From Microgenomates group bacterium (GTDB taxonomy: Bacteria > Patescibacteriota > Microgenomatia > Daviesbacterales > UBA10151), in NCBI GenBank assembly GCA_041659805.1, contig JBAZXP010000001.1, positions 192,589-256,588 of the forward strand: a stretch of DNA of 64,000 bases, written 5' to 3'. The notes beneath the pieces are model-generated. The model saw only the letters and a program-made list of their open reading frames with translations. It ran no database searches and was not told the origin of the DNA. The position numbers and the translations under genes were made by a program. This document shows positions 17,385-34,035 of the stretch, piece by piece (position 1 is the stretch's first letter; every line of letters begins with the position of its first letter).

Positions 17385-19103
17385 ATGTCTGCCCTACTAA
17401 GAAAAGTTGTCGGTTGTCGGTTGTCGGTTATCGGCCTGTTTTTATTTATAATATTTGCAGTTAATTTCTTTATCCTCACTCCATCTGTTTTTGCAGCTGA
17501 TAACTGGCAAAAACTAAACCCTTCTAACTATCAAGACAGAATTGCTACTCAAAGATATTTTACGAATCTGATAGTTGCAGCGAATGTGGCTATGTCCGGG
17601 GAAGATCCTTTAAACGGACCTGCTTACAGCGAAAAGGTTACAGTCACGAGTACTGATGGTGCATACAACATGAATTCAGTCCCCGGTATTGGTCCGGGAG
17701 ATAAGCAAGGAGGGATGATCGGTATGGCAACTAAATCAATCGCTTCTATAATATCCACCCGTCCAACTTCCAGCCAGGAATATCTGGCTAATTTAGGAGA
17801 GAACATTGGAATCGCTCCCAAGCCTGCTTATGCTCAGATTACTGGGTCAGGACAAAATGTCATTGATCCTGTTTTAAAACTTTGGCAGGTCACCAGAAAT
17901 ATTGCCTATACTGGTTTTATTTTGGTCTTCATGGCAGCAGGAGTCATGATCATGTTCCGCCAAAAACTTAATCCTCAAACAGTCATTGGAATTCAACAGG
18001 CATTACCAGGCATTGTGGTCGGTTTAATTTTGGTTACCTTTAGCTATTTTATCGCAGCACTCATTGTTGATTTGTCGTTTGTCGGCACCCGGCTGGTTAC
18101 TGAAATATTTGTGAGTTCAGGAGAAACTAATTACTTCGGATGCACAGTGAAATGTGAAGAGGGTGGAAATCCCAAGCAAAAAAATATAGACGGGCTTCGT
18201 CAAACTTATAAAGATTCCGATGCTTTTAATATGTTTCAAAGAGTTGCTTTAAGAGTAAATAATGTCACTGATGTATTTAGAAATGTCTGGGGAACGCTGA
18301 TCACTAATCCTGATGTCCCACCTGAACCAGAAAGCCAGGAAGCTTTACTGCAAAGACTTAGTGTAACAACACCTCTTCCAGGTGATGAAGCTGCAGTATC
18401 ATTTGCTGGAGCAGGAGGGGCAGTAATCAAAGATCAGGGAATTCAGGGAGTAGTTGCAATGGGTGTTGCAACAATCGCTTCTTTGTTGGTTCCTCTAATC
18501 TTAATGATTGCTTTAATGATTCAATTTATTAAATTAATTATCGCCTTGCTGATATCATATTTACAGATCTTGTTGATGGTTATTTTTGGACCAATCTTAA
18601 TTATGGTTTCTGCCATCCCAGGCAGAGGGGGTGCATTAAGCTACTGGTTAAAAGCTCTTTTTGCAAATGCTTTAGTTTTTCCAGCTGTTTTTGCCGGATT
18701 TTTGTTTGCCGGTTTACTTTTAGAATGGGCTGGTACCAGCGGACCTACTTTTACAGCCAACATGCCTATGTTTGGGGGGTTACATGCTAATGTCCTAAAA
18801 TCATTACTGGCTTTTGGGGTTTTGCTGGGATTACCTGCAATTCCTGATATGGTCAGAGATGCCATGGGAGTTAAAACTCCTCAAGGATTTATGAAAGCAG
18901 CTGTGGGTGGATTTATGGGTGGAATCGGAGGTGCTCAAGCAGGTTATGGTCAGGCTATGCAGCGAACTGGTCTGTCAGCAAGAAAAGAAGCTATGGAGAA
19001 AGCACAACTGGAAACGGCTGCGCACAATCGTCCTGGAGAAGGCGGACCACAAAATACAGGAGAAAGAATATTGTCTTGGTTGCCGAGTGGTGGACGACGT
19101 TAA
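17385..19103 (+). CDS. TrbL/VirB6-like polytopic membrane protein
   Basis: Signal/TM helix, a ~130-aa extracytoplasmic N-domain, about 6 TM helices, and a Gly-rich C-terminal tail (GGFMGGIGGAQAGYGQAMQ) typical of TrbL. Lies in T4SS-like context. Confidence 0.55.
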   Translation: MSALLRKVVGCRLSVIGLFLFIIFAVNFFILTPSVFAADNWQKLNPSNYQDRIATQRYFTNLIVAANVAMSGEDPLNGPAYSEKVTVTSTDGAYNMNSVPGIGPGDKQGGMIGMATKSIASIISTRPTSSQEYLANLGENIGIAPKPAYAQITGSGQNVIDPVLKLWQVTRNIAYTGFILVFMAAGVMIMFRQKLNPQTVIGIQQALPGIVVGLILVTFSYFIAALIVDLSFVGTRLVTEIFVSSGETNYFGCTVKCEEGGNPKQKNIDGLRQTYKDSDAFNMFQRVALRVNNVTDVFRNVWGTLITNPDVPPEPESQEALLQRLSVTTPLPGDEAAVSFAGAGGAVIKDQGIQGVVAMGVATIASLLVPLILMIALMIQFIKLIIALLISYLQILLMVIFGPILIMVSAIPGRGGALSYWLKALFANALVFPAVFAGFLFAGLLLEWAGTSGPTFTANMPMFGGLHANVLKSLLAFGVLLGLPAIPDMVRDAMGVKTPQGFMKAAVGGFMGGIGGAQAGYGQAMQRTGLSARKEAMEKAQLETAAHNRPGEGGPQNTGERILSWLPSGGRR

Positions 19104-19107
19104 TGGT

Positions 19108-21081
19108 TTATCTGCCTATATCGCTAAACCCTTGTTTAAATATGTGACCCAATACACCTAAAATAAAGCCTATAATGCCATCTTTTACAGTCGACGCCAA
19201 ATTTGCTACTCTCCAATAACGACCGAGCGCTTTTTCTAAAACTTTTTTTCTGGTATCCAAGGTAAAAAACGGTGGCTTGTTTGGATCAGTTAACCCTGCA
19301 AGATCATTTGCCATAGATACAATTTCAGCGTTGTTATATTTTGGTTTGCCTGTCCTTTCTTCTCTCGTGGTTTGGGCAAAATCAATAAAATCAACCGCTA
19401 AGGCTTCTTTTGCCTCATCTTGATTTTTTTTTGAAAAAGCAAAAGCATCCATTAACTTACGTAAAGATTCAACAGTTGGATTCCTTAAATAGCTTTCAGA
19501 TGTCTTGGTTAAAGCATCTCGCACACCTTCTGCACCCTGAACACATCTACTAGCCCAAAGGCCCATTAAACCTCTCCCCATTGGACTAAAATCACGACCT
19601 TCCAATTTTTTAAAATCTACTCGGCCAACCTTACCGCCCGCATTATGATCTTTTCTGTCTAACCATTCCATTCCTGGTACACCATATTTAATAAAACCAC
19701 TTTCTTTTTCAAACAGACTTGCAACCCCTTCATTTCTGGTAAAAAAATCTCCCCCATAACAATCAACCTTATTAATTAATTGAACATGAGCATGTATTGT
19801 TGCCTGTTCTTTAATGACCAAATCACGCTGTTTCATGGTTCTTCTGGTATCATAATCACAGCCATCGCCTCCTCCTATCCAATCAAACTTTACCTCTCTT
19901 TTATGTTGTTTACCATCAGGGTCAGTAACATAATATACAGCGCCATTAAGCTTTTTTCCTTCATAATAATCGTCTGTAATACGAAGTTCTTCTGGTATTG
20001 GCTCTAATACCGGTAATTCAGGAAGGGGTGTTTTATTTTCTACTGCGTCTTCTAGATCTTTTTTATATTTTCGATATTCTGCTATCTGTCTTTTTTGATA
20101 TATAGACCATTTGCTTTCTGCAACCCATACATCCTTACCGTCTTTGTCTTTTTTCTTTTCCGTAAACACCATAATTCCTTTATCAACCAAAGAATCAAAC
20201 ATCACAGCCCGGCAAGTAAAGCGGAACATTCTTTCTGCTAAAAGTTGTGCTGCTGCATAATCTTCTGGTTTACCTCCAAATTCTTTGACTAAATGTCCCT
20301 GAACTTTTGCGGCAAACAACGGTCTGTTCTCAAACGCACTAAAAACAGTAAATTCTTCGCCGTGTTCCTCGTAATATTGCAGGGCCTGAATAAAAGGATT
20401 AAATTCTGTTTCTGTTTTTGGACTAATTTGTTTCATTCCATAGATGGCAGTGAAGTGTTCTGGCTGCAGTTTTTCCTGAGCAGCTTTTATTACCACATTA
20501 AGATCAGAGGAGTTTTCATATTGCAGAGAAATCTCACGGAAAATCATTCTGGCTTCTACTTCTTCCAGCATATTTTTTGCTTCATCTTGCATATTTTTTG
20601 CTTCAGAATACGCCCTTTTTTCTTCATCCGTCTCTCCTAAAGGAATTTCTTCCCCTTTTAAGCTGCCTAAAATTGAATTTATTCGGGTATACTCAGTAGT
20701 AATTTGTTGGCTGAGACTGCCTTTTTCCAGTTCTATTCTGCTTAAAAGAGCTCTGGTCCTTTTGCGGGCTACTTCCGCATCCTTTGGCCAATAAACCCAC
20801 ATTTGGCGTTGCATTTGATCAAAAATTCTAACTGATTTAAACCCCGGTTTTTCAGGAAGCGGGGAATATCTTTCCACTATTTCCCAAGGCAGAAGCCTTG
20901 GATCTACCTCACGACGTCCGGTATAAGGATCAATTGTTTCCTCATCTTCTATATCTACATGGGGGGTTGCAGCGCGTCTTTCCTCTGCAGGCCTAGCTGC
21001 CGCTGCTTCTGTGGGTGGTATTCCTCCTGTTTCAGGTCCTGGACCTGTTCCTCCATCTGGCATAATTCTTTCTCTTTCCAT
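19108..21081 (-). CDS. large soluble protein of unknown function (657 aa); the first ~50 codons are markedly GC-rich and Pro/Gly/Ala/Glu-rich
   Basis: Long uninterrupted ORF with no recognisable P-loop or HUH motifs. N-terminus MERERIMPDGGTGPGPETGGIPPTEAAAARPAEERRAATP. Confidence 0.6.
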   Translation of the reverse strand: MERERIMPDGGTGPGPETGGIPPTEAAAARPAEERRAATPHVDIEDEETIDPYTGRREVDPRLLPWEIVERYSPLPEKPGFKSVRIFDQMQRQMWVYWPKDAEVARKRTRALLSRIELEKGSLSQQITTEYTRINSILGSLKGEEIPLGETDEEKRAYSEAKNMQDEAKNMLEEVEARMIFREISLQYENSSDLNVVIKAAQEKLQPEHFTAIYGMKQISPKTETEFNPFIQALQYYEEHGEEFTVFSAFENRPLFAAKVQGHLVKEFGGKPEDYAAAQLLAERMFRFTCRAVMFDSLVDKGIMVFTEKKKDKDGKDVWVAESKWSIYQKRQIAEYRKYKKDLEDAVENKTPLPELPVLEPIPEELRITDDYYEGKKLNGAVYYVTDPDGKQHKREVKFDWIGGGDGCDYDTRRTMKQRDLVIKEQATIHAHVQLINKVDCYGGDFFTRNEGVASLFEKESGFIKYGVPGMEWLDRKDHNAGGKVGRVDFKKLEGRDFSPMGRGLMGLWASRCVQGAEGVRDALTKTSESYLRNPTVESLRKLMDAFAFSKKNQDEAKEALAVDFIDFAQTTREERTGKPKYNNAEIVSMANDLAGLTDPNKPPFFTLDTRKKVLEKALGRYWRVANLASTVKDGIIGFILGVLGHIFKQGFSDIGR

Positions 21082-21171: not shown

Positions 21172-22203
21172 CTATGCTGCCTGCCCTGGAGACCAACCGC
21201 AAACCCTGTCTTCCCCATCCTCTCCTTTAATCCTCCCAGGACAACTGGTAAGCTCTCCTCTTTCCATTCTTTTCTCTTCATCAGGACCGGGCTCCCAGCC
21301 ACACTTTCGGCATCTGACTTTCTCGCAACCTGTACTCACTTCCTGGGAATTCCCGGCAAAAACATTAAAAGCAGTATTGGCTTTAGGTGGACAGCTGGAA
21401 CCTCTATTTCCGACCATACCGGATCTTCCTGCTATATTTACAAATTTTTCCACATTAACCCTGCCTGTATCAGCTGCTGTTTGTTGATATATATCCAAAG
21501 CCTGATTTACTGTTTGTTGCTTTAAGATTAAATCTTCACCGTTTCTGACTTGTCTGACCTGCTTTAAGGAAATATCAGGCAACAGCTCCTCTAATATATA
21601 AGTCCAGTCGCAATTATCACTTAATTCAAGAGGAATAGACCGCACTTCGTCATTTGATGAAAAATACGGCTTATTATGAGAATAATTCGCCAAACCCCGG
21701 GCAAACTCCAAACATTTAGCTTCTTTTATATCCAAAACAATGGCCCTGTTAAATAAAATCTGTTTCCCGTCTTGTTCCCTGATTTCACTGACAATAATCT
21801 TAGAAACCGAATAGGCTCCAGCCTCTGGTGGACTAACCCAGGCAATAACGCCTGACTTTTTACCCTTAACTATCTTTTGTATACTGTCAAAAGCCTGAAA
21901 TTCTAACTCTCCGACTTTGGAATCTCGTAAAATAACTTCTTCTACTAATTTACCGGTAACAGGGGAAAGAAGTTTACCATCTTCACGGATTGTATAAAAG
22001 TAAGGATCAGGAATTCTTTTTGTTTCCATGCATAAAGAAGCAACCTCTTCCGCAAATTGAGTTTTTGGCTTGCCCTCCCAGGCGCGGGCGCCATCTCTAA
22101 GCTCCCGAATACCAATACTATTATCTTGAGACGGAATAGAACTACTCTGAGGTCTTAAATGGGCATCTATTGAGGAGTCTGTTAAAGTTTCTAATCTGGT
22201 CAT
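21172..22203 (-). CDS. unknown protein with a C-terminal Cys-rich (zinc-ribbon-like) tail
   Basis: CEKVRCRKCGWEPG...SCPGRIKGEDGEDRVCGW at the C-terminus. No other recognisable motifs. Confidence 0.55.
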   Translation of the reverse strand: MTRLETLTDSSIDAHLRPQSSSIPSQDNSIGIRELRDGARAWEGKPKTQFAEEVASLCMETKRIPDPYFYTIREDGKLLSPVTGKLVEEVILRDSKVGELEFQAFDSIQKIVKGKKSGVIAWVSPPEAGAYSVSKIIVSEIREQDGKQILFNRAIVLDIKEAKCLEFARGLANYSHNKPYFSSNDEVRSIPLELSDNCDWTYILEELLPDISLKQVRQVRNGEDLILKQQTVNQALDIYQQTAADTGRVNVEKFVNIAGRSGMVGNRGSSCPPKANTAFNVFAGNSQEVSTGCEKVRCRKCGWEPGPDEEKRMERGELTSCPGRIKGEDGEDRVCGWSPGQAA

Positions 22204-22245
22204 AGTTTCCTGCTCGGGACAAATGCGGTTCGGTCTCCTGGCTTA

Positions 22246-22330
22246 ATCAGAGTATCGGCATATCAGCAAATCAGCAGATCAGAAATAAATATCTGACACG
22301 CTGACTCGCCGACACACTGACAAACTGAAA
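22246..22330. repeat. imperfect ~40-bp-arm inverted repeat built from 8-bp-periodic units (5 x ATCAG arm, 10-nt AT loop, 5 x CTGAC arm), located in the leader of the minus-strand gene 21172..22203
   Basis: ATCAG at 22246, 22254 (ATCGG), 22262, 22270, 22278. CTGAC at 22293, 22301, 22309 (CCGAC), 22317, 22325. Most arm mismatches are A:C on the plus strand, which become U:G wobbles on the minus strand. Confidence 0.6.
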
Positions 22331-22540
22331 TTACAGTTGCGGCACAGCTCCCGAGTCTCACGGGATTCCCATTTACCTTAACTCTTTTTAACGAGTGGTA
22401 AACCGCCCTTTTAAATTACACAACTATGTTGTTTTTGTCAATTCCCATCATGAAAGCACCAGATACATTAAGAATAGGCTAAATTGATCTCTTTTGAGAT
22501 GCTTGCGAGTAAAGTTTTCACGAGTTATACATAAAGGACT

Positions 22541-23725
22541 ATGGAACCACATCCTATTCCACAAAATGTAACTTCTTTTGAATTCCACTTAGTAGGGGAT
22601 ATGACTCTAAAACAATTTATTTATTTAGGAGCCGGACTCGGTACTGCTTATTTACTATACGCCACACTCTTTTTTTCAATCCCTGTTTTAGCTATCCCAT
22701 TAATCCTTATTTCCAGCGTGCTTGGAATAGCTTTTGCTTTTGTGCCTATTTACGACCGGCCTTTTGATCATTGGGTTGGTGCTTTTTTCAGAGCTGTTTA
22801 TTCACCGACAAAGGGTTCCTTTAAACTAAGATCTAATCCTAAGTTAAAGGTTACTCCTAGTGATCCTTTTTTACAAAACAGGCTACAGCTATACCTTTCT
22901 TCCATGGGAATGACTGTTAATCTTTGGGATAAGCAAATTCCGACTGCACCTGCCACATCTACCCCCACTCCAACACCAGCAATCCCTGAGATTAAGGAGA
23001 TTAAAGAATCAGAAAAACAGGCTACCTTAGCAGAAAATATCTTAACTAAAACTTTAGGGAATATCCAAGCCCAAGCTCAACCGGAAAGTACCAGTCATCT
23101 ACCTTCCCAACAGGAATTAACAAATCTAGTGGAGATGGCTAGACAAGCACAAGTCTTGCAGGGAAAAATATCTGATACAGAAAAATTAATTAAACAGATG
23201 ACAACCACAACTAAGCAGACAGAAACAACCCAGATTCAGTCCAGTTTAAAAGCTCTCTTACAACAAACAGAAGAGTTATACCAAAAAACTTCCAGCATGA
23301 CTCAGGCAACAACACATACAACTGCTGCCCAACAACTGCCGCAAACAGTACCGATAACACCGGCCCCACCTATTTTAACTCAACCGGCAGTTGCTCCGAA
23401 GGTAACAATAGTCCAACCTTTGGCACACAAGGAAACGCAGGTAGTTTTAACCTCAACTCCGAATGTTATTAACGGCATTGTCGGTGATGATGCCGGAAAT
23501 TTCCTGGAAAATGTCATCGTAATTATTCACGATAAAGACGGAATGCCTGTCCGGGCTTTAAAAACAAATAAATTAGGCCAGTTTGCAGGAGCGACACCTT
23601 TACCTTTAGGTGTTTATACAATCACCCTGGAAAAAGAACATTTTACCTTTCAAACATTACAAATAACGCTTGATAATTCAGTGCTTGGACCTCTTCGAAT
23701 AGTTGCTAAAAGAGGAGGACAATAA
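22541..23725 (+). CDS. PrgI/VirB3-like two-TM N-terminus fused to a long Gln/Thr-rich coiled region and a C-terminal carboxypeptidase-regulatory-like beta-sandwich domain
   Basis: N-terminus FEFHLVGDMTLKQFIYLGAGLGTAYLLY resembles the PrgI family (FGLTLRQF...). C-terminus GIVGDDAGNFLENVIVIIHDKDGMPVRALKTNKLGQFAGATPLPLGVYTITLEKEHF. RBS AAAGGA before the ATG. Confidence 0.5.
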   Translation: MEPHPIPQNVTSFEFHLVGDMTLKQFIYLGAGLGTAYLLYATLFFSIPVLAIPLILISSVLGIAFAFVPIYDRPFDHWVGAFFRAVYSPTKGSFKLRSNPKLKVTPSDPFLQNRLQLYLSSMGMTVNLWDKQIPTAPATSTPTPTPAIPEIKEIKESEKQATLAENILTKTLGNIQAQAQPESTSHLPSQQELTNLVEMARQAQVLQGKISDTEKLIKQMTTTTKQTETTQIQSSLKALLQQTEELYQKTSSMTQATTHTTAAQQLPQTVPITPAPPILTQPAVAPKVTIVQPLAHKETQVVLTSTPNVINGIVGDDAGNFLENVIVIIHDKDGMPVRALKTNKLGQFAGATPLPLGVYTITLEKEHFTFQTLQITLDNSVLGPLRIVAKRGGQ

Positions 23726-23726
23726 T

Positions 23727-24632
23727 TTGACTACCAGCCAAGAATTTATTCCGATTAGCGATGTCAGTAAAAATTTAGTATTTCAAAAAGACGGATCTGT
23801 AGCAATTATCCTCTCTGTCTCAGCCGTTAATTTCGCACTTCTGTTTGAAACTGAACAAATTTCCATTATTGATTCATTCGCAGGTCTTTTGAATTCCTTA
23901 TCCTTTCCCATTCAAATTGTAATTTATTCCAAAATCATGGACGTTTCTTCCTATTTGCATACAATTGACAATGCCCTTGCCCGTCAAGCCAACCCTCTAC
24001 TTAAATCAATGACCTTAAAATACCGTGATTTTGTGGAAAAAAGCATTAAAGATAACAATGTTCTGGATAAAAGGTTCTATGTTTGCATTAAATTAACGTC
24101 TTTAGAATTAGGTCTACTTCCTTCCAATATGGAAGAAAAAACAAAAAAAGTTACAACACTCCTTGAACCAAGACGGGACCATTTGATCAGACAACTAGAC
24201 CGACTTGGCTTAAAGGCAAAGCAGCTAACAACAGAGGAAATCATTAAATTATTTTATGAAATCTATAACCCGCCCATTACAACAAGTGCTGACTTACCTG
24301 TACAAAGCAATGTCAAGGCTACTCCCTTATTGGAAATCCATCAGCCACCCGCCAACCCTCCGACGGACGCACCAAGGGTAGAAAATAATCTGCCGCCAAA
24401 ACTCCGGCCGATTAAACCGGCTTTGACTCAACCGAGCATTCCAGCACCTGCTGTAAAACCGACAGCTCAAACAACGATTCTTGTTCCGGTCGCCACGGCA
24501 GCACCGGTAGTGACGGTTCCAATCACACAACCGCCAGTCAATCCGACACCAACGCCTATCCTTAACCAAGCCGCTCCGCAACACAATAGCCCTTTTGTGG
24601 TAGAAGAGCTACCTGATGACGATGGATCCTAA
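23727..24632 (+). CDS. VirB4/CagE/TrbE-family protein, N-terminal portion, ending in a Pro/Thr/Ala-rich tail
   Basis: FIPISDVSKNLVFQKDGSVAIILSVSAVNFALLFETEQISIIDSFAGLLNSLSFPIQIVIY matches the N-domain of Gram-positive VirB4 homologs. TTG start at 23727 preceded by an AGAGGAGG RBS. The track ORF begins at an upstream in-frame TTG at 23703. Confidence 0.6.
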   Translation: MTTSQEFIPISDVSKNLVFQKDGSVAIILSVSAVNFALLFETEQISIIDSFAGLLNSLSFPIQIVIYSKIMDVSSYLHTIDNALARQANPLLKSMTLKYRDFVEKSIKDNNVLDKRFYVCIKLTSLELGLLPSNMEEKTKKVTTLLEPRRDHLIRQLDRLGLKAKQLTTEEIIKLFYEIYNPPITTSADLPVQSNVKATPLLEIHQPPANPPTDAPRVENNLPPKLRPIKPALTQPSIPAPAVKPTAQTTILVPVATAAPVVTVPITQPPVNPTPTPILNQAAPQHNSPFVVEELPDDDGS

Positions 24633-26379
24633 GCAAAAACAACTAACATTTGAAGATGCAGTGGCACCCTATGAAATGGAGATGGATTTTTCGTTCCTAA
24701 AAATTAATCACCGCTATTTACGTTCTTTTTTTGTATCTGCTTATCCCCGTTATGTTGAACCAAACTGGCTGGAACCGTTAATTTCTTTTGAACATTCAAT
24801 GATTTTATCCATGTTCATCTACCCCACCAGCTCAGCCGGAATCTTAGATGATTTAAAAAGAAAAATTGCGGAAATGGAGGCCACTATCCAAACTGATCTA
24901 GAACGGGGACGAGTTGTTAATCCAACTGTAACAATAGCACTTGATGACGCCAAGCAGTTACAGGAACAACTAGCTAAAGGCTCGGAACGATTTTTCCAGT
25001 TTAGTTTATATATCGATGTCCCTGCAGATTCCATAGAAGAGCTAAACAATAAATCACAATTAGTCCAATCCACCCTGGGTAGTATTTCAATTACTTCGCA
25101 TCCGTTAATGCTCCAGATGAAAGAAGGGTTTGAAAGCACTTTGCCTTTGGGACAAGACCCTTTGTATTTGGCACATAATATGGATACCACCTCTCTTGCC
25201 ACCACTTTTCCTTTTGTCTCATCAGAGCTTACTTCTCCGGACGGAGTAATCTATGGCATTAATGCACATAACGATTCCTTAATTATTTTTGACAGGTTTA
25301 GTCAGGAAAACGCCAATTCAGTAGTTTTTGCCACAGCCGGAGCCGGAAAATCTTATTTTGTGAAACTGGAATCACTGCGTTCATTGATGCTGGGCGCTGA
25401 AATAATTATCATTGATCCGGAAAAAGAATATGTCGATTTAGCCAATGCTGTGGGAGGAGATTATATTAATTTCTCTACTGCCTCCCCGGTTAAAATCAAT
25501 CCTTTTGACTTGCCTGATATAGCCAACAGCGAAGAAGACGAGTTGGGAAGAAAGATTTTATCTTTAACCGGTTTTTTAAGGTTGGTTTTAGGCGATTTGA
25601 CTGCCAATGAAGTTGCAGTTTTAGACCGGGCTTTAAATGCCACTTATAAATTAAAAGGTATTACTGCCAATGTTTTTAATAAAGCTGACCCTACCAGTAA
25701 ACAAAAAATCGAAGCTCCGTTAATGGAAGATTTATATAAGATTTTAATCGGTATGGAAGACACTATGGCTGGCAGTCTGGCAATCCGTTTGGAAAGGTTT
25801 ATTAAAGGCTCTTTGGCAGGCATTTTTTCTGCCCAATCCAATATCAATATCAATAACCCTTTTACTGTTTTTTCGGTTCGTGAATTGCCTGATCAACTGC
25901 GACCTTTGGCAATGTATTTAATATTGGATTATATTTGGACCAAAATCAGACGCGAGATTAAAAAAAGAATTTTAGTAGTGGATGAAGCCTGGTATATGAT
26001 GAAGTATCCTGATTCAGCTTCTTTTTTAGTGGAGATGGTCAAGCGGTCCCGAAAATATTACCTGGGTGTCACCACCATATCTCAGGATGTGGAAGACTTT
26101 TTAGGGCAAGACCGGGGTAAGGAAATTATCTCCAACTCAGCTATGCAAATTTTATTAAAACAAGCGCCTGTTTCCATTGAAAAAATAGGAGCTGTTTTTA
26201 ATCTGTCTCAAGGAGAAAAAAGACTACTAACCACTGCAGGTGTCGGACAAGGGCTCTTTTTTGCAGGCAATGTGCATATTGCCATGTCAATTGTGGCCTC
26301 AGATGAAGAACATCAGCTGATCACTACTAACCCAAGAGAAATTTTAGAACGCCAGGAAAAAGAAAAAGGAGATAAATAG
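24616..26379 (+). CDS. VirB4/CagE/TrbE-family ATPase, central and C-terminal portion
   Basis: AYPRYVEPNWLEPL, Walker A ATAGAGKSYFVK, Walker B RILVVDEAWYMM. Overlaps the upstream ORF by 17 nt in the +1 frame. Confidence 0.8.
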   Translation: MTMDPKQKQLTFEDAVAPYEMEMDFSFLKINHRYLRSFFVSAYPRYVEPNWLEPLISFEHSMILSMFIYPTSSAGILDDLKRKIAEMEATIQTDLERGRVVNPTVTIALDDAKQLQEQLAKGSERFFQFSLYIDVPADSIEELNNKSQLVQSTLGSISITSHPLMLQMKEGFESTLPLGQDPLYLAHNMDTTSLATTFPFVSSELTSPDGVIYGINAHNDSLIIFDRFSQENANSVVFATAGAGKSYFVKLESLRSLMLGAEIIIIDPEKEYVDLANAVGGDYINFSTASPVKINPFDLPDIANSEEDELGRKILSLTGFLRLVLGDLTANEVAVLDRALNATYKLKGITANVFNKADPTSKQKIEAPLMEDLYKILIGMEDTMAGSLAIRLERFIKGSLAGIFSAQSNININNPFTVFSVRELPDQLRPLAMYLILDYIWTKIRREIKKRILVVDEAWYMMKYPDSASFLVEMVKRSRKYYLGVTTISQDVEDFLGQDRGKEIISNSAMQILLKQAPVSIEKIGAVFNLSQGEKRLLTTAGVGQGLFFAGNVHIAMSIVASDEEHQLITTNPREILERQEKEKGDK

Positions 26380-30978: not shown

Positions 30979-32313
30979 TTACTGGGCAGTTAAGGCTTGC
31001 TTGAGCTCTATTAAAACCCTCTGGATTTCCCTGTCTGTGCCAGAGGCAGTCCTGATTTTATCCACACCGTGCAAGATGGTGGTGTGATCCCTTCCGCCCA
31101 ATAAATCCCCGATTCTCTCATAGGGAATTTTGCACTCCTCATACAAAAGATACATAGCTAATTGTCTGGGGAAAACCAACTCTTTTTTGCGTCTGGGGCC
31201 GGTAATATCTGACATTTTAGTATTAAAATAACGATTGATTTCTGAAAAAACCTTTTTATGGTCCAATTTCATACTGGATGGCTGAGGTTTTCCCAGGTGG
31301 TTTCTGATAAATTCAGGGGTCAGTGCAAGATTTTGTAATTTGGCAATCTGAATAATTTGCATCAACTTCCCTTCCAGCTCTCTGGCGTTTGTTTCTACCA
31401 GCTCAGCAATTAGAATCATACATTCTTCTGGCACAGCATCTCCTTTTTCCCTGCATCTGGCTTTGATAATAGCGACCCTGGTATCAAAATCCGGTAGTTG
31501 AATATCTACCATCAAACCTCCCTGGAATCTGGAGGCGAGTCTTCCTTCCAGTTTTTGAATTTCATTTGGCGGTCTGTCTGAGGTTAAAATAATCTGGGCA
31601 TTTTTAGCCTGAAGCTCATTAAAGGTATGGAAAAACTCTTCCTGAGTTGAATCTCTGCCGGAAATAAACTGGACATCATCAATTAAAAGCAGTCCGCAAT
31701 TGCGGTATTTAGCCCGAAAATCCCCTGTTCTTTTGGTTTGAATGCTTTGGATAAAGTCGTTCATAAATTTTTCCGAAGAGCAATAAATAATCTTCAGGTG
31801 TGGGTTTTTAGCAACTAAGGCATTTCCTACACCGTGCATTAAATGAGTTTTTCCTACTCCTGTGCCGCCATAAATAAATAAAGGATTATAGGTAGTGCCG
31901 GGATTATTGATTACGCCCTGGGCTGCGGCATAAGCCAAGTTATTTGACAGGCCAACTACAAAGTTTTCCACAGTATATTTTGGATTAAGACCTGTTTGAG
32001 ATAAATCAGGAGCTCTGACTTCAAAATCTAACTCCAGATCCAGCCCTGAATCAGATCCGCTTTTAGAGTTTAGCGAAGAATCGACTCTAAATTCTATGTT
32101 CAGGGTTTTTCCAAAGGATTGCTCCACAGCTTTGGCTAAAACATCAATATATTTTGTGGAAAGTTGTTGTTTAATAAAAGCTGAGGGGACATTGATTGTA
32201 ACCTTGTTGTCCTCGATAGATTCGAGAGTGGTTTTAGAAAACCAGGTACGGTAGTTTGCCAGGGTAACCTGGTCCTTAAGGATTTTTAAAGTATTTGACC
32301 ACTGTTTTTCCAT
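30979..32313 (-). CDS. dnaA: chromosomal replication initiator DnaA
   Basis: AAA+ Walker A GGTGVGKTHLMHGVGN, box VII and a C-terminal DNA-binding helix. N-terminus WFSKTTL. Confidence 0.95.
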   Translation of the reverse strand: MEKQWSNTLKILKDQVTLANYRTWFSKTTLESIEDNKVTINVPSAFIKQQLSTKYIDVLAKAVEQSFGKTLNIEFRVDSSLNSKSGSDSGLDLELDFEVRAPDLSQTGLNPKYTVENFVVGLSNNLAYAAAQGVINNPGTTYNPLFIYGGTGVGKTHLMHGVGNALVAKNPHLKIIYCSSEKFMNDFIQSIQTKRTGDFRAKYRNCGLLLIDDVQFISGRDSTQEEFFHTFNELQAKNAQIILTSDRPPNEIQKLEGRLASRFQGGLMVDIQLPDFDTRVAIIKARCREKGDAVPEECMILIAELVETNARELEGKLMQIIQIAKLQNLALTPEFIRNHLGKPQPSSMKLDHKKVFSEINRYFNTKMSDITGPRRKKELVFPRQLAMYLLYEECKIPYERIGDLLGGRDHTTILHGVDKIRTASGTDREIQRVLIELKQALTAQ

Positions 32314-32375
32314 AAATTCTTGATGGGTAAATCGAGGCAGAACCAGAACTCATTGGGGCTATCATAGTGAAAAAG

Positions 32376-32384
32376 TTATCCACA
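32376..32384. promoter_or_regulatory. perfect DnaA box TTATCCACA in the dnaA-rpmH divergent intergenic region (candidate oriC part 2 / dnaA autoregulation)
   Basis: Exact 9-mer consensus. Confidence 0.5.
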
Positions 32385-32467
32385 GAAAAGATACCTAAAC
32401 AGTGACGCAATATATCAACTTAGAGTTAGCCTTGCAAAAAGCCTCGAAAATTAGTAAACTACCCTAT

Positions 32468-32608
32468 ATGCCTAAACGCACTTATCAACCAAAAGCAGTC
32501 AAAAGAGTTAGAAAACACGGATTCATGGCCAGAATGAGTGATTCCGACGGACAAAAAGTCTTGAAAAGAAGACGGGCTAAAGGTAGAGTAAAGCTGGTGA
32601 CGGTATAG
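32468..32608 (+). CDS. rpmH: 50S ribosomal protein L34
   Basis: [43 protein letters not shown]. Start set to the internal ATG at 32468. Confidence 0.9.
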
Positions 32609-32648
32609 TCATCAGCAGTCAGCTTTCAGTCGTCAGGCTAAAAATAAA

Positions 32649-32990
32649 ATGCTTCCCAGAGAAAAAAGGCTCAATTTAAAAACTTCATTTAACTTTGTAA
32701 TCAAAGGACAAAAGGTAGAAAATTCCTTATACAAAATGTTTTTCAGACAAGCCGAAGAGAATCAGCCCAAAGTAGGTATCGCTTTAAAAAAAGAATATTT
32801 TAAATTAGCAGTTGATAGAAACAGAGCCAGAAGATTAACCTCAACAGCGCTCGGAGTGCTTTACCCCAACTTAAAGAAAAAGGTTAACCTGATTCTTATG
32901 CCAAAACAGGGAGTACTAGAACAATCTTCAGAAGAACTTACAGTGTTTTTAGAAAAGGAGTTAAAAAGATTAGACCTATTAGTCAAATAA
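32649..32990 (+). CDS. rnpA: RNase P protein component
   Basis: Position after rpmH, and the RnpA-like basic motif RNRARRL. Confidence 0.85.
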   Translation: MLPREKRLNLKTSFNFVIKGQKVENSLYKMFFRQAEENQPKVGIALKKEYFKLAVDRNRARRLTSTALGVLYPNLKKKVNLILMPKQGVLEQSSEELTVFLEKELKRLDLLVK

Positions 32991-32995
32991 GATCT

Positions 32996-33196
32996 ATGAG
33001 ACCTATTGTTTTGTTTTTAATCGATTTTTATAGGAAATTTTTATCCTTTGATAGAGGCCTGCTTTCTTTTTTGGCACCTGGGGGAGCTTGCAGGCAAACC
33101 CCAACATGCTCATTGTATACTAGGCAAATGATTATAAAGTATGGTTTAATGAGAGGACTTATTTTAGGAGGTAAAAGAATAATCAAATGCCGGTAG
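32996..33196 (+). CDS. yidD: membrane protein insertion efficiency factor YidD
   Basis: GGACRQTPTCSLYTRQMIIKYG. Confidence 0.85.
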   Translation: MRPIVLFLIDFYRKFLSFDRGLLSFLAPGGACRQTPTCSLYTRQMIIKYGLMRGLILGGKRIIKCR

Positions 33197-34035
33197 ATAT
33201 TGGAGCTGTTTTTAATACATTATTTTTAGGACCAATTGTTAATCTTTTAGTTCTAATTTTCCGCGCTCTTGAGACCATTCACCTACCAGGTGCTTTTGGT
33301 TTTTCAATTATAGTTCTTACAGTTATAGTAAGACTTTTGGTTTGGCCTTTTATGCAGACCCAGCTTAAATCCGCCAGAAAGATGGCAGAGCTAAAACCCC
33401 ATCTGGATGCTTTAAAGATTAAACACAAGGGAGATAAACAAGGATTAGCTACTGCTCAAATGGCTTTATACAAAGAACATGGGGTTAATCCTGCCGGAGG
33501 TTGTCTCCCAGCTATTATTCAGATTCCTGTAATATGGGCTCTTTATACAGCAATTCAGAAATTCTTTGAACCTTCTAGTTTGGATTGGTTAAACAATAGC
33601 GTTCTATATGTTAAAGAATGGTATTTTACTGCCACTCCTGATTTAAACTTTTTTGGTTTGAATTTAGCAACTAAACCTTCAGAATTTGGTCAATTTGGGG
33701 TATTGCTTCTTCTGATCCCTGTTATTACAGCGGCATTACAACTTATTCAATCCAAGATGATGGTTCCGGAAAAACCAGTAAAAATAAATAAAGATGATTC
33801 TCCAAAAGAGAAAAAGGAAAAAGTACAAACTGAGGATTCTATGGCAGCAATGCAATCTCAAATGATGTTTATGATGCCGCTCATGATTGGATATTTTGCC
33901 TTCCAGTTCCCTGTCGGCCTGGCTCTTTACTGGAATACATTTACTATCTTAGGAATTGTTCAGCAGTATAAAATTTCCGGTTGGGGTGGACTTAAGGATT
34001 GGACTGTTTTAGCAAAAAAATATTTACCTGCTTAG
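33187..34035 (+). CDS. yidC: membrane protein insertase YidC (short form)
   Basis: Synteny with yidD/jag. TM pattern and LYKEHGVNPAGGCLP motif. Confidence 0.85.
   Translation: MPVDIGAVFNTLFLGPIVNLLVLIFRALETIHLPGAFGFSIIVLTVIVRLLVWPFMQTQLKSARKMAELKPHLDALKIKHKGDKQGLATAQMALYKEHGVNPAGGCLPAIIQIPVIWALYTAIQKFFEPSSLDWLNNSVLYVKEWYFTATPDLNFFGLNLATKPSEFGQFGVLLLLIPVITAALQLIQSKMMVPEKPVKINKDDSPKEKKEKVQTEDSMAAMQSQMMFMMPLMIGYFAFQFPVGLALYWNTFTILGIVQQYKISGWGGLKDWTVLAKKYLPA

Follow-up and report, generated by a model that had tools for sequence, protein, structure and literature searches.

The stretch of DNA analysed here, a 64,000-nt window from a Microgenomates group bacterium (assembly GCA_041659805.1, contig JBAZXP010000001.1, positions 192,589 to 256,588; coordinates below count from its first letter), carries a long inverted repeat of 8-nt units at 22246-22329, shortly upstream of a minus-strand gene of unknown function. 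The question raised by this locus is what such a regular structure does there: the original prediction took it for a structured RNA leader under selection and, possibly, for a repeated protein-binding or titration site. The reading that we favour, with a probability of roughly 0.8, is that stem P6 of a cobalamin (B12) riboswitch has been enlarged here by the inverted repeat, an expansion segment that is dispensable, made of repeats and kept paired with itself as RNA; we infer its dispensability from its absence in relatives alone. The window was compared with 25 related Microgenomates/Daviesbacteria loci (L001-L025), a set that leaves out two further assemblies of the window's own genome.

Read on the plus strand, the left arm consists of ATCAG (22246-22250), ATCGG (22254-22258) and three further ATCAG units (22262-22266, 22270-22274 and 22278-22282). 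Beyond an A/T stretch at 22283-22292, the right arm consists of CTGAC (22293-22297 and 22301-22305), CCGAC (22309-22313), CTGAC (22317-22321) and CTGAA (22325-22329). Tandem Repeats Finder (TRF) and a repeat finder give a unit period of exactly 8 nt on both arms. Direct reading and both programs bear out the five ATCAG-type units, with ATCGG as the second, that had been described for the left arm, and the A/T stretch is the reported 10-nt AT loop; for the right arm, the number of units, their period and the CCGAC variant hold, while the fifth unit is CTGAA and not CTGAC. CCGAC had also been said to mirror ATCGG, which is incorrect. In the symmetric register, which is that of the minimum free energy (MFE) structure, ATCGG (left unit 2) stands opposite CTGAC (right unit 4) as an A.C mismatch in RNA, and CCGAC (right unit 3) stands opposite ATCAG (left unit 3) as a G.U pair; the variant units are one unit out of register and therefore are not compensatory partners. 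A three-unit pattern with up to three mismatches has 8 matches in the window versus 1.6 expected, a number reached in none of 100 shuffles. The parts of the hairpin are as follows.

22292-22328, minus strand: hairpin 5' arm, UCAG followed by GUCAG/GUCGG units with an 8-nt period (sequence, fold and TRF)
22284-22291, minus strand: hairpin loop UAUUUAUU (MFE structure)
22247-22283, minus strand: hairpin 3' arm, CUGAU/CCGAU units with an 8-nt period (sequence, fold and TRF)

Folded as minus-strand RNA, the inverted repeat reaches an MFE of -45.9 kcal/mol (z -7.8; none of 200 shuffles was equally good) versus -22.4 kcal/mol (z -4.1) as plus-strand RNA, in agreement with the claim that its pairing favours a minus-strand transcript. 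The hairpin proper has 33 bp, or 36 with the 3-bp base of P6, which matches the approximately 36 paired positions counted earlier. Nine of the 36 pairs are wobbles (eight G:U and one U:G), which a plus-strand transcript would show as A:C oppositions. This asymmetry had been called a signature of selection on the RNA; its direction is right, and a strand gap this large arose in 0.7% of trials when ten independent transitions were simulated on a perfect hairpin, but the argument is confounded by unit copying and mutation bias, which are weighed below. The strand assignment is safer than the wobbles alone would make it because the minus-strand match to the riboswitch family RF00174, which is independent of them, contains the hairpin. 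Two other identities were rejected. The hairpin is not an intrinsic terminator because it has no U-tract, and the matches of both strands to the Rfam family mir-9424 (37 and 23 bits, versus a gathering score of 90) are of the kind that any long hairpin gives.

A scan against all Rfam families identified the region as a cobalamin riboswitch (RF00174; 51.2 bits versus a gathering score of 31.5, E 8e-10), with a full-length match covering model positions 1-189 of 189 on minus strand 22214-22418. The leader is thus predicted to be a B12 riboswitch, which adds a member to a known family. The hairpin falls in the variable insert of the model, which is the tip of P6, between the conserved GCAACUGUAA (ACUGUAA) and the B12 box AGCCAGGAGACC; the covariance model leaves it as an unaligned insert of 67 nt and aligns the B12 box to its own conserved AGCCAGGAGACC with posterior probability '*'. 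The distance given originally, 43-127 nt upstream of the ATG, is correct, and the hairpin does belong to an RNA structure in the 5' leader of the gene at 21172-22203; it is not free-standing, however, but forms the variable P6 tip of a riboswitch that had been overlooked. The leader contains the following elements.

22436-22441, minus strand: putative -35 box TTGACA, proposed because TTGACA-17 nt-TAAnTT is conserved before P1 in the window, L001, L002 and L003
22413-22418, minus strand: putative -10 box TAATTT, proposed from conservation in the window and L001-L003
22214-22418, minus strand: predicted cobalamin (B12) riboswitch aptamer (RF00174)
22334-22336, minus strand: 5' strand CUG of the P6 basal stem, pairing with CAG at 22238-22240 (covariation; leader MFE)
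22238-22240, minus strand: 3' strand CAG of the P6 basal stem (covariation; leader MFE)
22232-22243, minus strand: B12 box AGCCAGGAGACC (model alignment)
22208-22219, minus strand: conserved UCCCGAGCAGGA element with the Shine-Dalgarno (SD) sequence AGGA at 22208-22211, presumed expression platform (conservation)

The motifs that define the family are present, namely the B12 box (AGYCMGGAGACC) and the GCCGCAAC / GGGAA core, as is GGGAAUCCCG...CUGUGCCGCAAC upstream of the B12 box; B12 box and core are invariant or nearly so across 20 related leaders. A cobalamin riboswitch precedes the homologous gene in all eight loci of a first set (L001-L008) and, at the gathering threshold, in 12 of the 17 loci of a second (L009-L025), that is, in at least 20 of 25. 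Comparison of homologous loci had been proposed as a check on the hairpin. It reveals covariation in the 3-bp basal stem of P6, where the middle pair varies among CUG/CAG, CGG/CCG and CCG/CGG (U:A, G:C and C:G) and no pattern-matched locus violates the pairing; the hairpin arms themselves are absent from relatives or built there of other units. In the MFE structure of the whole leader, the hairpin is an independent module on the CUG/CAG base.

A scan of 22150-22560 for consensus promoters and terminators found no match, and the putative promoter was missed because its -10 box is weak. Immediately before the AUG, YCCCGNGCAGGAG with its SD sequence is conserved in nearly all related leaders, and the SD-containing UCCCGAGCAGGA element ends 4 nt before the AUG. 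With the conserved promoter-like TTGACA-17-TAAnTT at the other end, the minus-strand leader would therefore span roughly 22412-22204, and the hairpin lies within the aptamer. Occlusion of the SD sequence through the UCCCGAGCAGGA element is the presumed mode of control.

The P6 tip differs strongly among relatives. The segment from CCGCAAC to the B12 box was extracted from every pattern-matched locus. It leaves a P6 loop of only 5-6 nt (for example, UGUAA) in 11 of them (L001, L006, L010, L011, L012, L015, L016, L018, L020, L021 and L022), including the closest relative, L001, whose protein is 72% identical. L007, L008 and L013 fit the short AdoCbl-II model, in which there is no room for an insert, so that P6 is free of a hairpin in at least 14 loci. 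L002 has a 40-nt segment forming a plain hairpin, and the segment reaches 85-113 nt in L003, L004, L005, L009 and L014, versus 92 nt in the window. Insertion is between UAA and AGY of the P6 loop (UAA^AGY), and between L014 and L011, L016 and L018 the difference is a clean 81-nt indel in an otherwise invariant aptamer core.

All five long inserts of the relatives fold as long hairpins of tandem units with both arms repetitive. The units are 7 nt long: GUCGUCA opposite CUGAAAG/CUGAUAG in L003 and L014, UUAGGGU / ACCCUAA in L004 and L009, and UAGGAUU / AAGUCCU in L005. Between the sister loci L004 and L005, GGG:CCC-type units face GGA:UCC-type units, the two arms having changed in step. In these P6 inserts, structure is retained and sequence is not, with the arms turning over jointly between sister loci. 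On the protein tree, an insert-free locus is the sister of the window, L003 pairs with L002 and its plain hairpin, and L004 pairs with L005, while L014 is nested in insert-free loci and L009 stands apart; the scatter therefore requires at least four gains or many losses. The sense strand is more stable than the antisense strand in six of seven inserts, the plain hairpin of L002 included, and in this comparison the gap is largest in the window (-46.5 versus -22.8). Insert termini (UUUCAG...CUGAUU) and A/U-rich loops are alike in the window, L014 and L003, which belong to different clades.

Repeat-built structures also stand at other places in these leaders. L009 has such hairpins 5' of the riboswitch and P1 (2525-2645) and in the linker from aptamer to platform (2848-2935), with z from -3.7 to -5.0, and L005 has a repeat-built insert at another leader site (1074-1104). 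The linkers from P1 to the SD element in L016 and L018 contain plain-looking hairpins, and the P2 position ranges among relatives from empty to a 10-bp hairpin.

Cobalamin riboswitches (clan CL00101, including RF00174 and RF01689, the AdoCbl-II family) share with the window the four-way-junction core, the B12 box and the place before SD sequence and AUG. The targets here are not known genes of B12 transport, B12 synthesis or a B12-independent isozyme, but genes of unknown function in a cluster resembling a type IV secretion system (T4SS) in a Candidate Phyla Radiation (CPR) bacterium. In class Cbl-II, P6 bears only a short, simple stem-loop pointing outward from the core, and there is no P2 module; in class Cbl-I, the P6 extension is a branched P7-P11 structure that folds back via junctions with conserved adenosines, and a P2 module is present (PMC7367189). 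The P6 helix of the window resembles that of Cbl-II in being continuous, although greatly lengthened, and differs from both classes in its tip, where 8-nt tandem repeats form a regular duplex of about 33 bp. It lacks the mark of Cbl-I, since the extension is one continuous helix with small mismatches and is absent in close relatives. L001, L007, L008 and L013 match RF01689 best, and P6 without an insert has 3 bp and a 6-nt loop. A P2-like hairpin is present in the window (UACCACUC...GAGUUAAGGUA); with this hairpin and a very long P6 tip, the copy therefore fits neither class cleanly.

The following course of events would account for these features. Transcription from the minus strand would start just after the promoter-like TTGACA-17-TAATTT, and a hairpin of about 33 bp would cap P6. 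B12 would be sensed by the conserved four-way-junction core and the B12 box, with the hairpin outside the sensing core, and control would most likely act at translation initiation via the SD-containing UCCCGAGCAGGA element. The hairpin would be a lineage-specific expansion placed in the 6-nt P6 loop and built from a family of 7-8-nt tandem repeats (UCAG plus 3-4 nt) that is found in several transcribed non-coding spacers. An insert within a folded RNA would be tolerated only if it is self-paired and projects away from the core, which would account for arms that are complementary as RNA, with G:U allowed, in a DNA that is a poor palindrome. Such a tip may have grown where it stands, both arms lengthening by slippage (compensatory slippage), or a palindromic repeat element may have been inserted ready-made.

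PMC1888808 presents compensatory slippage, citing Hancock and Dover 1990, as the model proposed for ribosomal RNA (rRNA) expansion segments, and mentions similar segments in signal recognition particle RNA, RNase P RNA and enod40. Like the rRNA segments, the P6 tip is a variable stem-loop on the end of a conserved helix, with both strands repetitive, presence differing among close relatives and the core intact; variable length and matching changes in the two arms of tandem repeats complete the likeness. Unlike them, it is hosted by a bacterial riboswitch and not by a eukaryotic rRNA, and its 7-8-nt units are longer and more regular than typical 'cryptically simple' expansion sequences.

The alternative origin, insertion, is compatible with an expansion segment and is a possible if less favoured route: a copy of a dispersed palindromic repeat would have landed in the P6 loop. 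Palindromic dispersed repeats are known in bacteria as repetitive extragenic palindromic (REP) sequences, bacterial interspersed mosaic elements (BIME) and elements similar to miniature inverted-repeat transposable elements (MITE), such as Correia or RUP. The window hairpin resembles these in being an element of about 65-85 nt that occurs more than once in a genome, at transcribed sites between genes, and that is cleanly present or absent among relatives, as in the 81-nt difference of L014, where the core is otherwise invariant. The similar termini and loops in different clades also point to insertion, as does a second five-unit hairpin of the same family in the window, the first of the two further arrays listed here.

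4949-5012, minus strand: second array, in the tRNA-Arg/tRNA-Ser spacer, with five 8-nt units (AUCAG/AUCGG) and, opposite them, a degenerate arm rich in U
32612-32636, plus strand, sense orientation: third array, filling the rpmH-rnpA spacer of 40 nt with four UCAG units of period 7 nt and lacking an inverted arm

The second array fills the entire 64-nt spacer between tRNA-Arg (5013-5088) and tRNA-Ser (4861-4948). Its opposite arm is degenerate (UUGGUAUU/UUGAUAUU), and its RNA folds with -20.9 kcal/mol (z -4.2) on the tRNA strand versus -10.5 kcal/mol on the opposite strand. It is thus a second five-unit hairpin, and its in-register alignment to the two P6 arms gives about 71-78% identity (32 of 41 positions, or about 78% by hand count, for the P6 3' arm); the three-way alignment of the repeats has a mean column identity of 78%. 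The third array lies directly 5' of the rnpA start codon, where no obvious SD sequence is seen.

Other features are at odds with insertion. Within the 64 kb there are only two or three copies, namely one further hairpin copy and one single-arm array besides P6, and these are diverged; the third array has no inverted arm, and the period is 7 nt or 8 nt depending on the relative. Junctions read by eye in the window, L014 and L003 revealed no consistent target-site duplication, and no link to a transposase was found. Unlike REP, BIME or MITE copies, the arms are themselves periodic tandem repeats, the similarity between copies is no higher than about 71-78%, and no signature of terminal inverted repeats with target-site duplication is established. 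Lastly, the units of L004 and L005 differ with matching changes in the arms, which looks like turnover in place.

Arrays of this kind are common in the lineage. In the window and L001-L025 (184 kb in total), TRF found 26 arrays of period 7-8, versus 0.7 in shuffles, and 17 of the 26 lie outside long open frames although such frames make up 88% of the sequence. Because related arrays recur elsewhere, the P6 hairpin is best regarded as one case of a lineage-typical class of short tandem repeats. Short tandemly repeated repetitive (STRR) sequences of cyanobacteria are heptanucleotide arrays in non-coding DNA. They have been used for fingerprinting (PMC5088731). The 7-8-nt arrays of the window and its relatives are likewise lineage-typical and concentrated in non-coding DNA, and differ in their phylum (CPR/Microgenomates), in their UCAG-, CUAG- or UAGG-type units and in often forming inverted hairpin pairs; the two kinds are alike but not related. 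The colonised sites seen are the P6 loop, the aptamer-platform linker, tRNA spacers and short spacers before start codons. It is conceivable, though doubtful, that Microgenomates/Daviesbacteria contain an undescribed family of 7-8-nt tandem repeats (UCAG, CUAG and UAGG types), often forming long hairpins, that recurrently colonises permissive sites in transcribed non-coding RNA, either as a bacterial counterpart of eukaryotic rRNA expansion segments or as a new tiny mobile element, and that is perhaps read by a lineage-specific RNA- or DNA-binding factor. A literature search returned nothing relevant on such repeats in Patescibacteria, on CPR cobalamin riboswitches or on riboswitch expansion segments.

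Heptamer arrays of CUAGAAC/UAGGUUC type lie directly 5' of start codons in L004 (1034-1064, 2185-2210 and 2570-2600) and L005 (725-749), in either orientation and about 5-15 nt from the start codons, where an SD sequence is expected. Nearly every non-coding array seen has TAG or TGA on one strand, which is an impression and not a statistic. One array in coding sequence is GTTGTCG x4.1 (17406-17434, plus strand; 95% match), within the first 17 codons of the open reading frame 17385-19103 (MSALLRKVVGCRLSVIG...), in a probable signal-peptide region.

Several observations weigh against the favoured reading. The hairpin is unusually long, regular and stable, and in the three assemblies, which are from different samples and form a small set, the number of units is not polymorphic; a neutral array in active slippage would not be expected to look like this. 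Of the nine wobbles, four occupy one unit position (G1:U5 of GUCAG/CUGAU) and were possibly copied along with the repeat unit, and therefore are not independent events. Moreover, the window contains oriC, so that the minus strand at 22 kb is the leading strand, where a C-to-T bias would also create G:U pairs and confound the asymmetry. The UCAG units are sense-oriented in all three transcribed spacers of the window, which hints at a recognition function. As to the platform, the leader MFE structure pairs UCCCGAG with the 3' strand of P5, but this complementarity is absent in L004 and L012, and a switch model based on it is not claimed.

The hint at recognition leads back to the suggestion that the 8-nt units are protein sites, bound either as RNA by a protein that recognises UCAG or as DNA by a repressor of the ribbon-helix-helix type acting on the divergent promoters. 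Arrays of 7-8-bp units, direct or inverted, are known targets of the omega repressor of pSM19035 and of ParG of TP228. The exact periodicity of both arms, the common orientation of the UCAG arrays and the position in a divergent intergenic region adjoining type IV secretion genes would all suit this role. It is nevertheless unlikely, because relatives with this riboswitch and gene either have no insert or build it differently: the closest relative and no fewer than 13 further loci are without it while keeping the riboswitch, most relatives without it also keep the gene arrangement, and the relatives that have a hairpin use wholly different units, so that neither the unit sequence nor the array is conserved as in an operator or titration site. 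One unit position differs systematically between the arms (ATCAG versus GTCAG when a single strand is read), so that the DNA is not symmetric; the units would be buried in a stable RNA duplex; and a DNA operator has no reason to be located exactly in the P6 loop. No candidate binding protein was identified, and the claim of a repeated binding or titration site is thus not supported.

The hairpin could instead be a functional part of the riboswitch periphery, either a P6 extension of the Cbl-I type that tunes ligand selectivity or a target of RNase III for mRNA decay. At about 33 bp, the near-perfect duplex has the length that RNase III needs, all three assemblies agree in sequence, and the best model is RF00174, whose members often have long P6 extensions. 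This is again improbable: the helix is continuous where Cbl-I has its P7-P11 junctions, the model treats the extension as an unaligned insert, and relatives with the same core are without the hairpin. A chance palindrome or an assembly artefact, for which nothing speaks beyond the general possibility of short-repeat mis-assembly, has practically no standing given the z of -7.8 against shuffles, the defined site in a conserved riboswitch with analogous hairpins there in five relatives, and a whole leader that is identical in three independent assemblies (the window, ENA ERZ27249449 and Logan SRR6484324), because of which the hairpin is not an artefact.

The B12 riboswitch itself is a known device. 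A repeat-built P6 tip that is gained or lost between close relatives is a new variant, of which no earlier account was found in the literature searched. It shows that inserts of about 80-110 nt, made of tandem repeats, can come and go at the end of a riboswitch stem among close relatives, a natural experiment on which aptamer sites tolerate insertion. It may also serve as a warning for motif searches, since the insert lengthens the riboswitch and about 67 nt do not align to the model; likewise, proximity to oriC matters when strand-biased substitutions in hairpins are interpreted.

The genes that the riboswitch would control are these.

21172-22203, minus strand: gene 1, 343 amino acids (aa), in NCBI hypothetical protein WCV81_00075 of a Microgenomates group bacterium, located on a contig of 1.13 Mb, unknown function
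19108-21081, minus strand: gene 2, probable operon partner, 657 aa, unknown function; gene 1 is followed by a similarly sized gene in L004, L005, L026 and L027

Neither gene has a significant match to a Pfam or NCBIfam family, and a search of 5.8 billion proteins returned only 26 homologues of gene 1. The 343-aa protein has a Cys-rich C-terminus. Its AlphaFold model has a predicted local distance difference test score (pLDDT) of 82, and a Foldseek comparison of this model with the PDB found no match at E <= 0.001, only a weak PAS-like similarity. The gene pair lies within a type IV secretion-like cluster (flanks 22541-26379) with PrgI, a TraC-like protein, a VirB4/TraG P-loop protein and five T4SS pilin genes, and the divergent PrgI/TraC/VirB4 arrangement also occurs in L004, L007 and L026. 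A riboswitch before a conserved gene pair without family or PDB fold, in a T4SS-like cluster near oriC, would be an unusual regulon for a B12 riboswitch in a CPR bacterium and may provide a lead, open to experiment, on B12 control in reduced, probably B12-auxotrophic CPR organisms. In three relatives, a divergent gene of 119-121 aa that matches 23S_rRNA_IVP/bAvd adjoins the riboswitch (L003 259-618, L004 2198-2563 and L005 348-713) and is absent from the window; bAvd is a family of diversity-generating retroelement accessory protein.

The cumulative GC-skew minimum of the window is at about 31 kb. The oriC neighbourhood (30979-34035) contains dnaA on the minus strand (30979-32313), followed by rpmH, rnpA and further genes on the plus strand, with dnaN beyond dnaA on the minus strand according to the gene table of L026. 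The region 1896-8080, in which the second array lies, encodes four tRNA-Ser (GGA, CGA, GCU and UGA) and tRNA-Arg(GCG), as well as a transfer-messenger RNA (tmRNA) of 401 nt on the minus strand (7680-8080; 86 bits).

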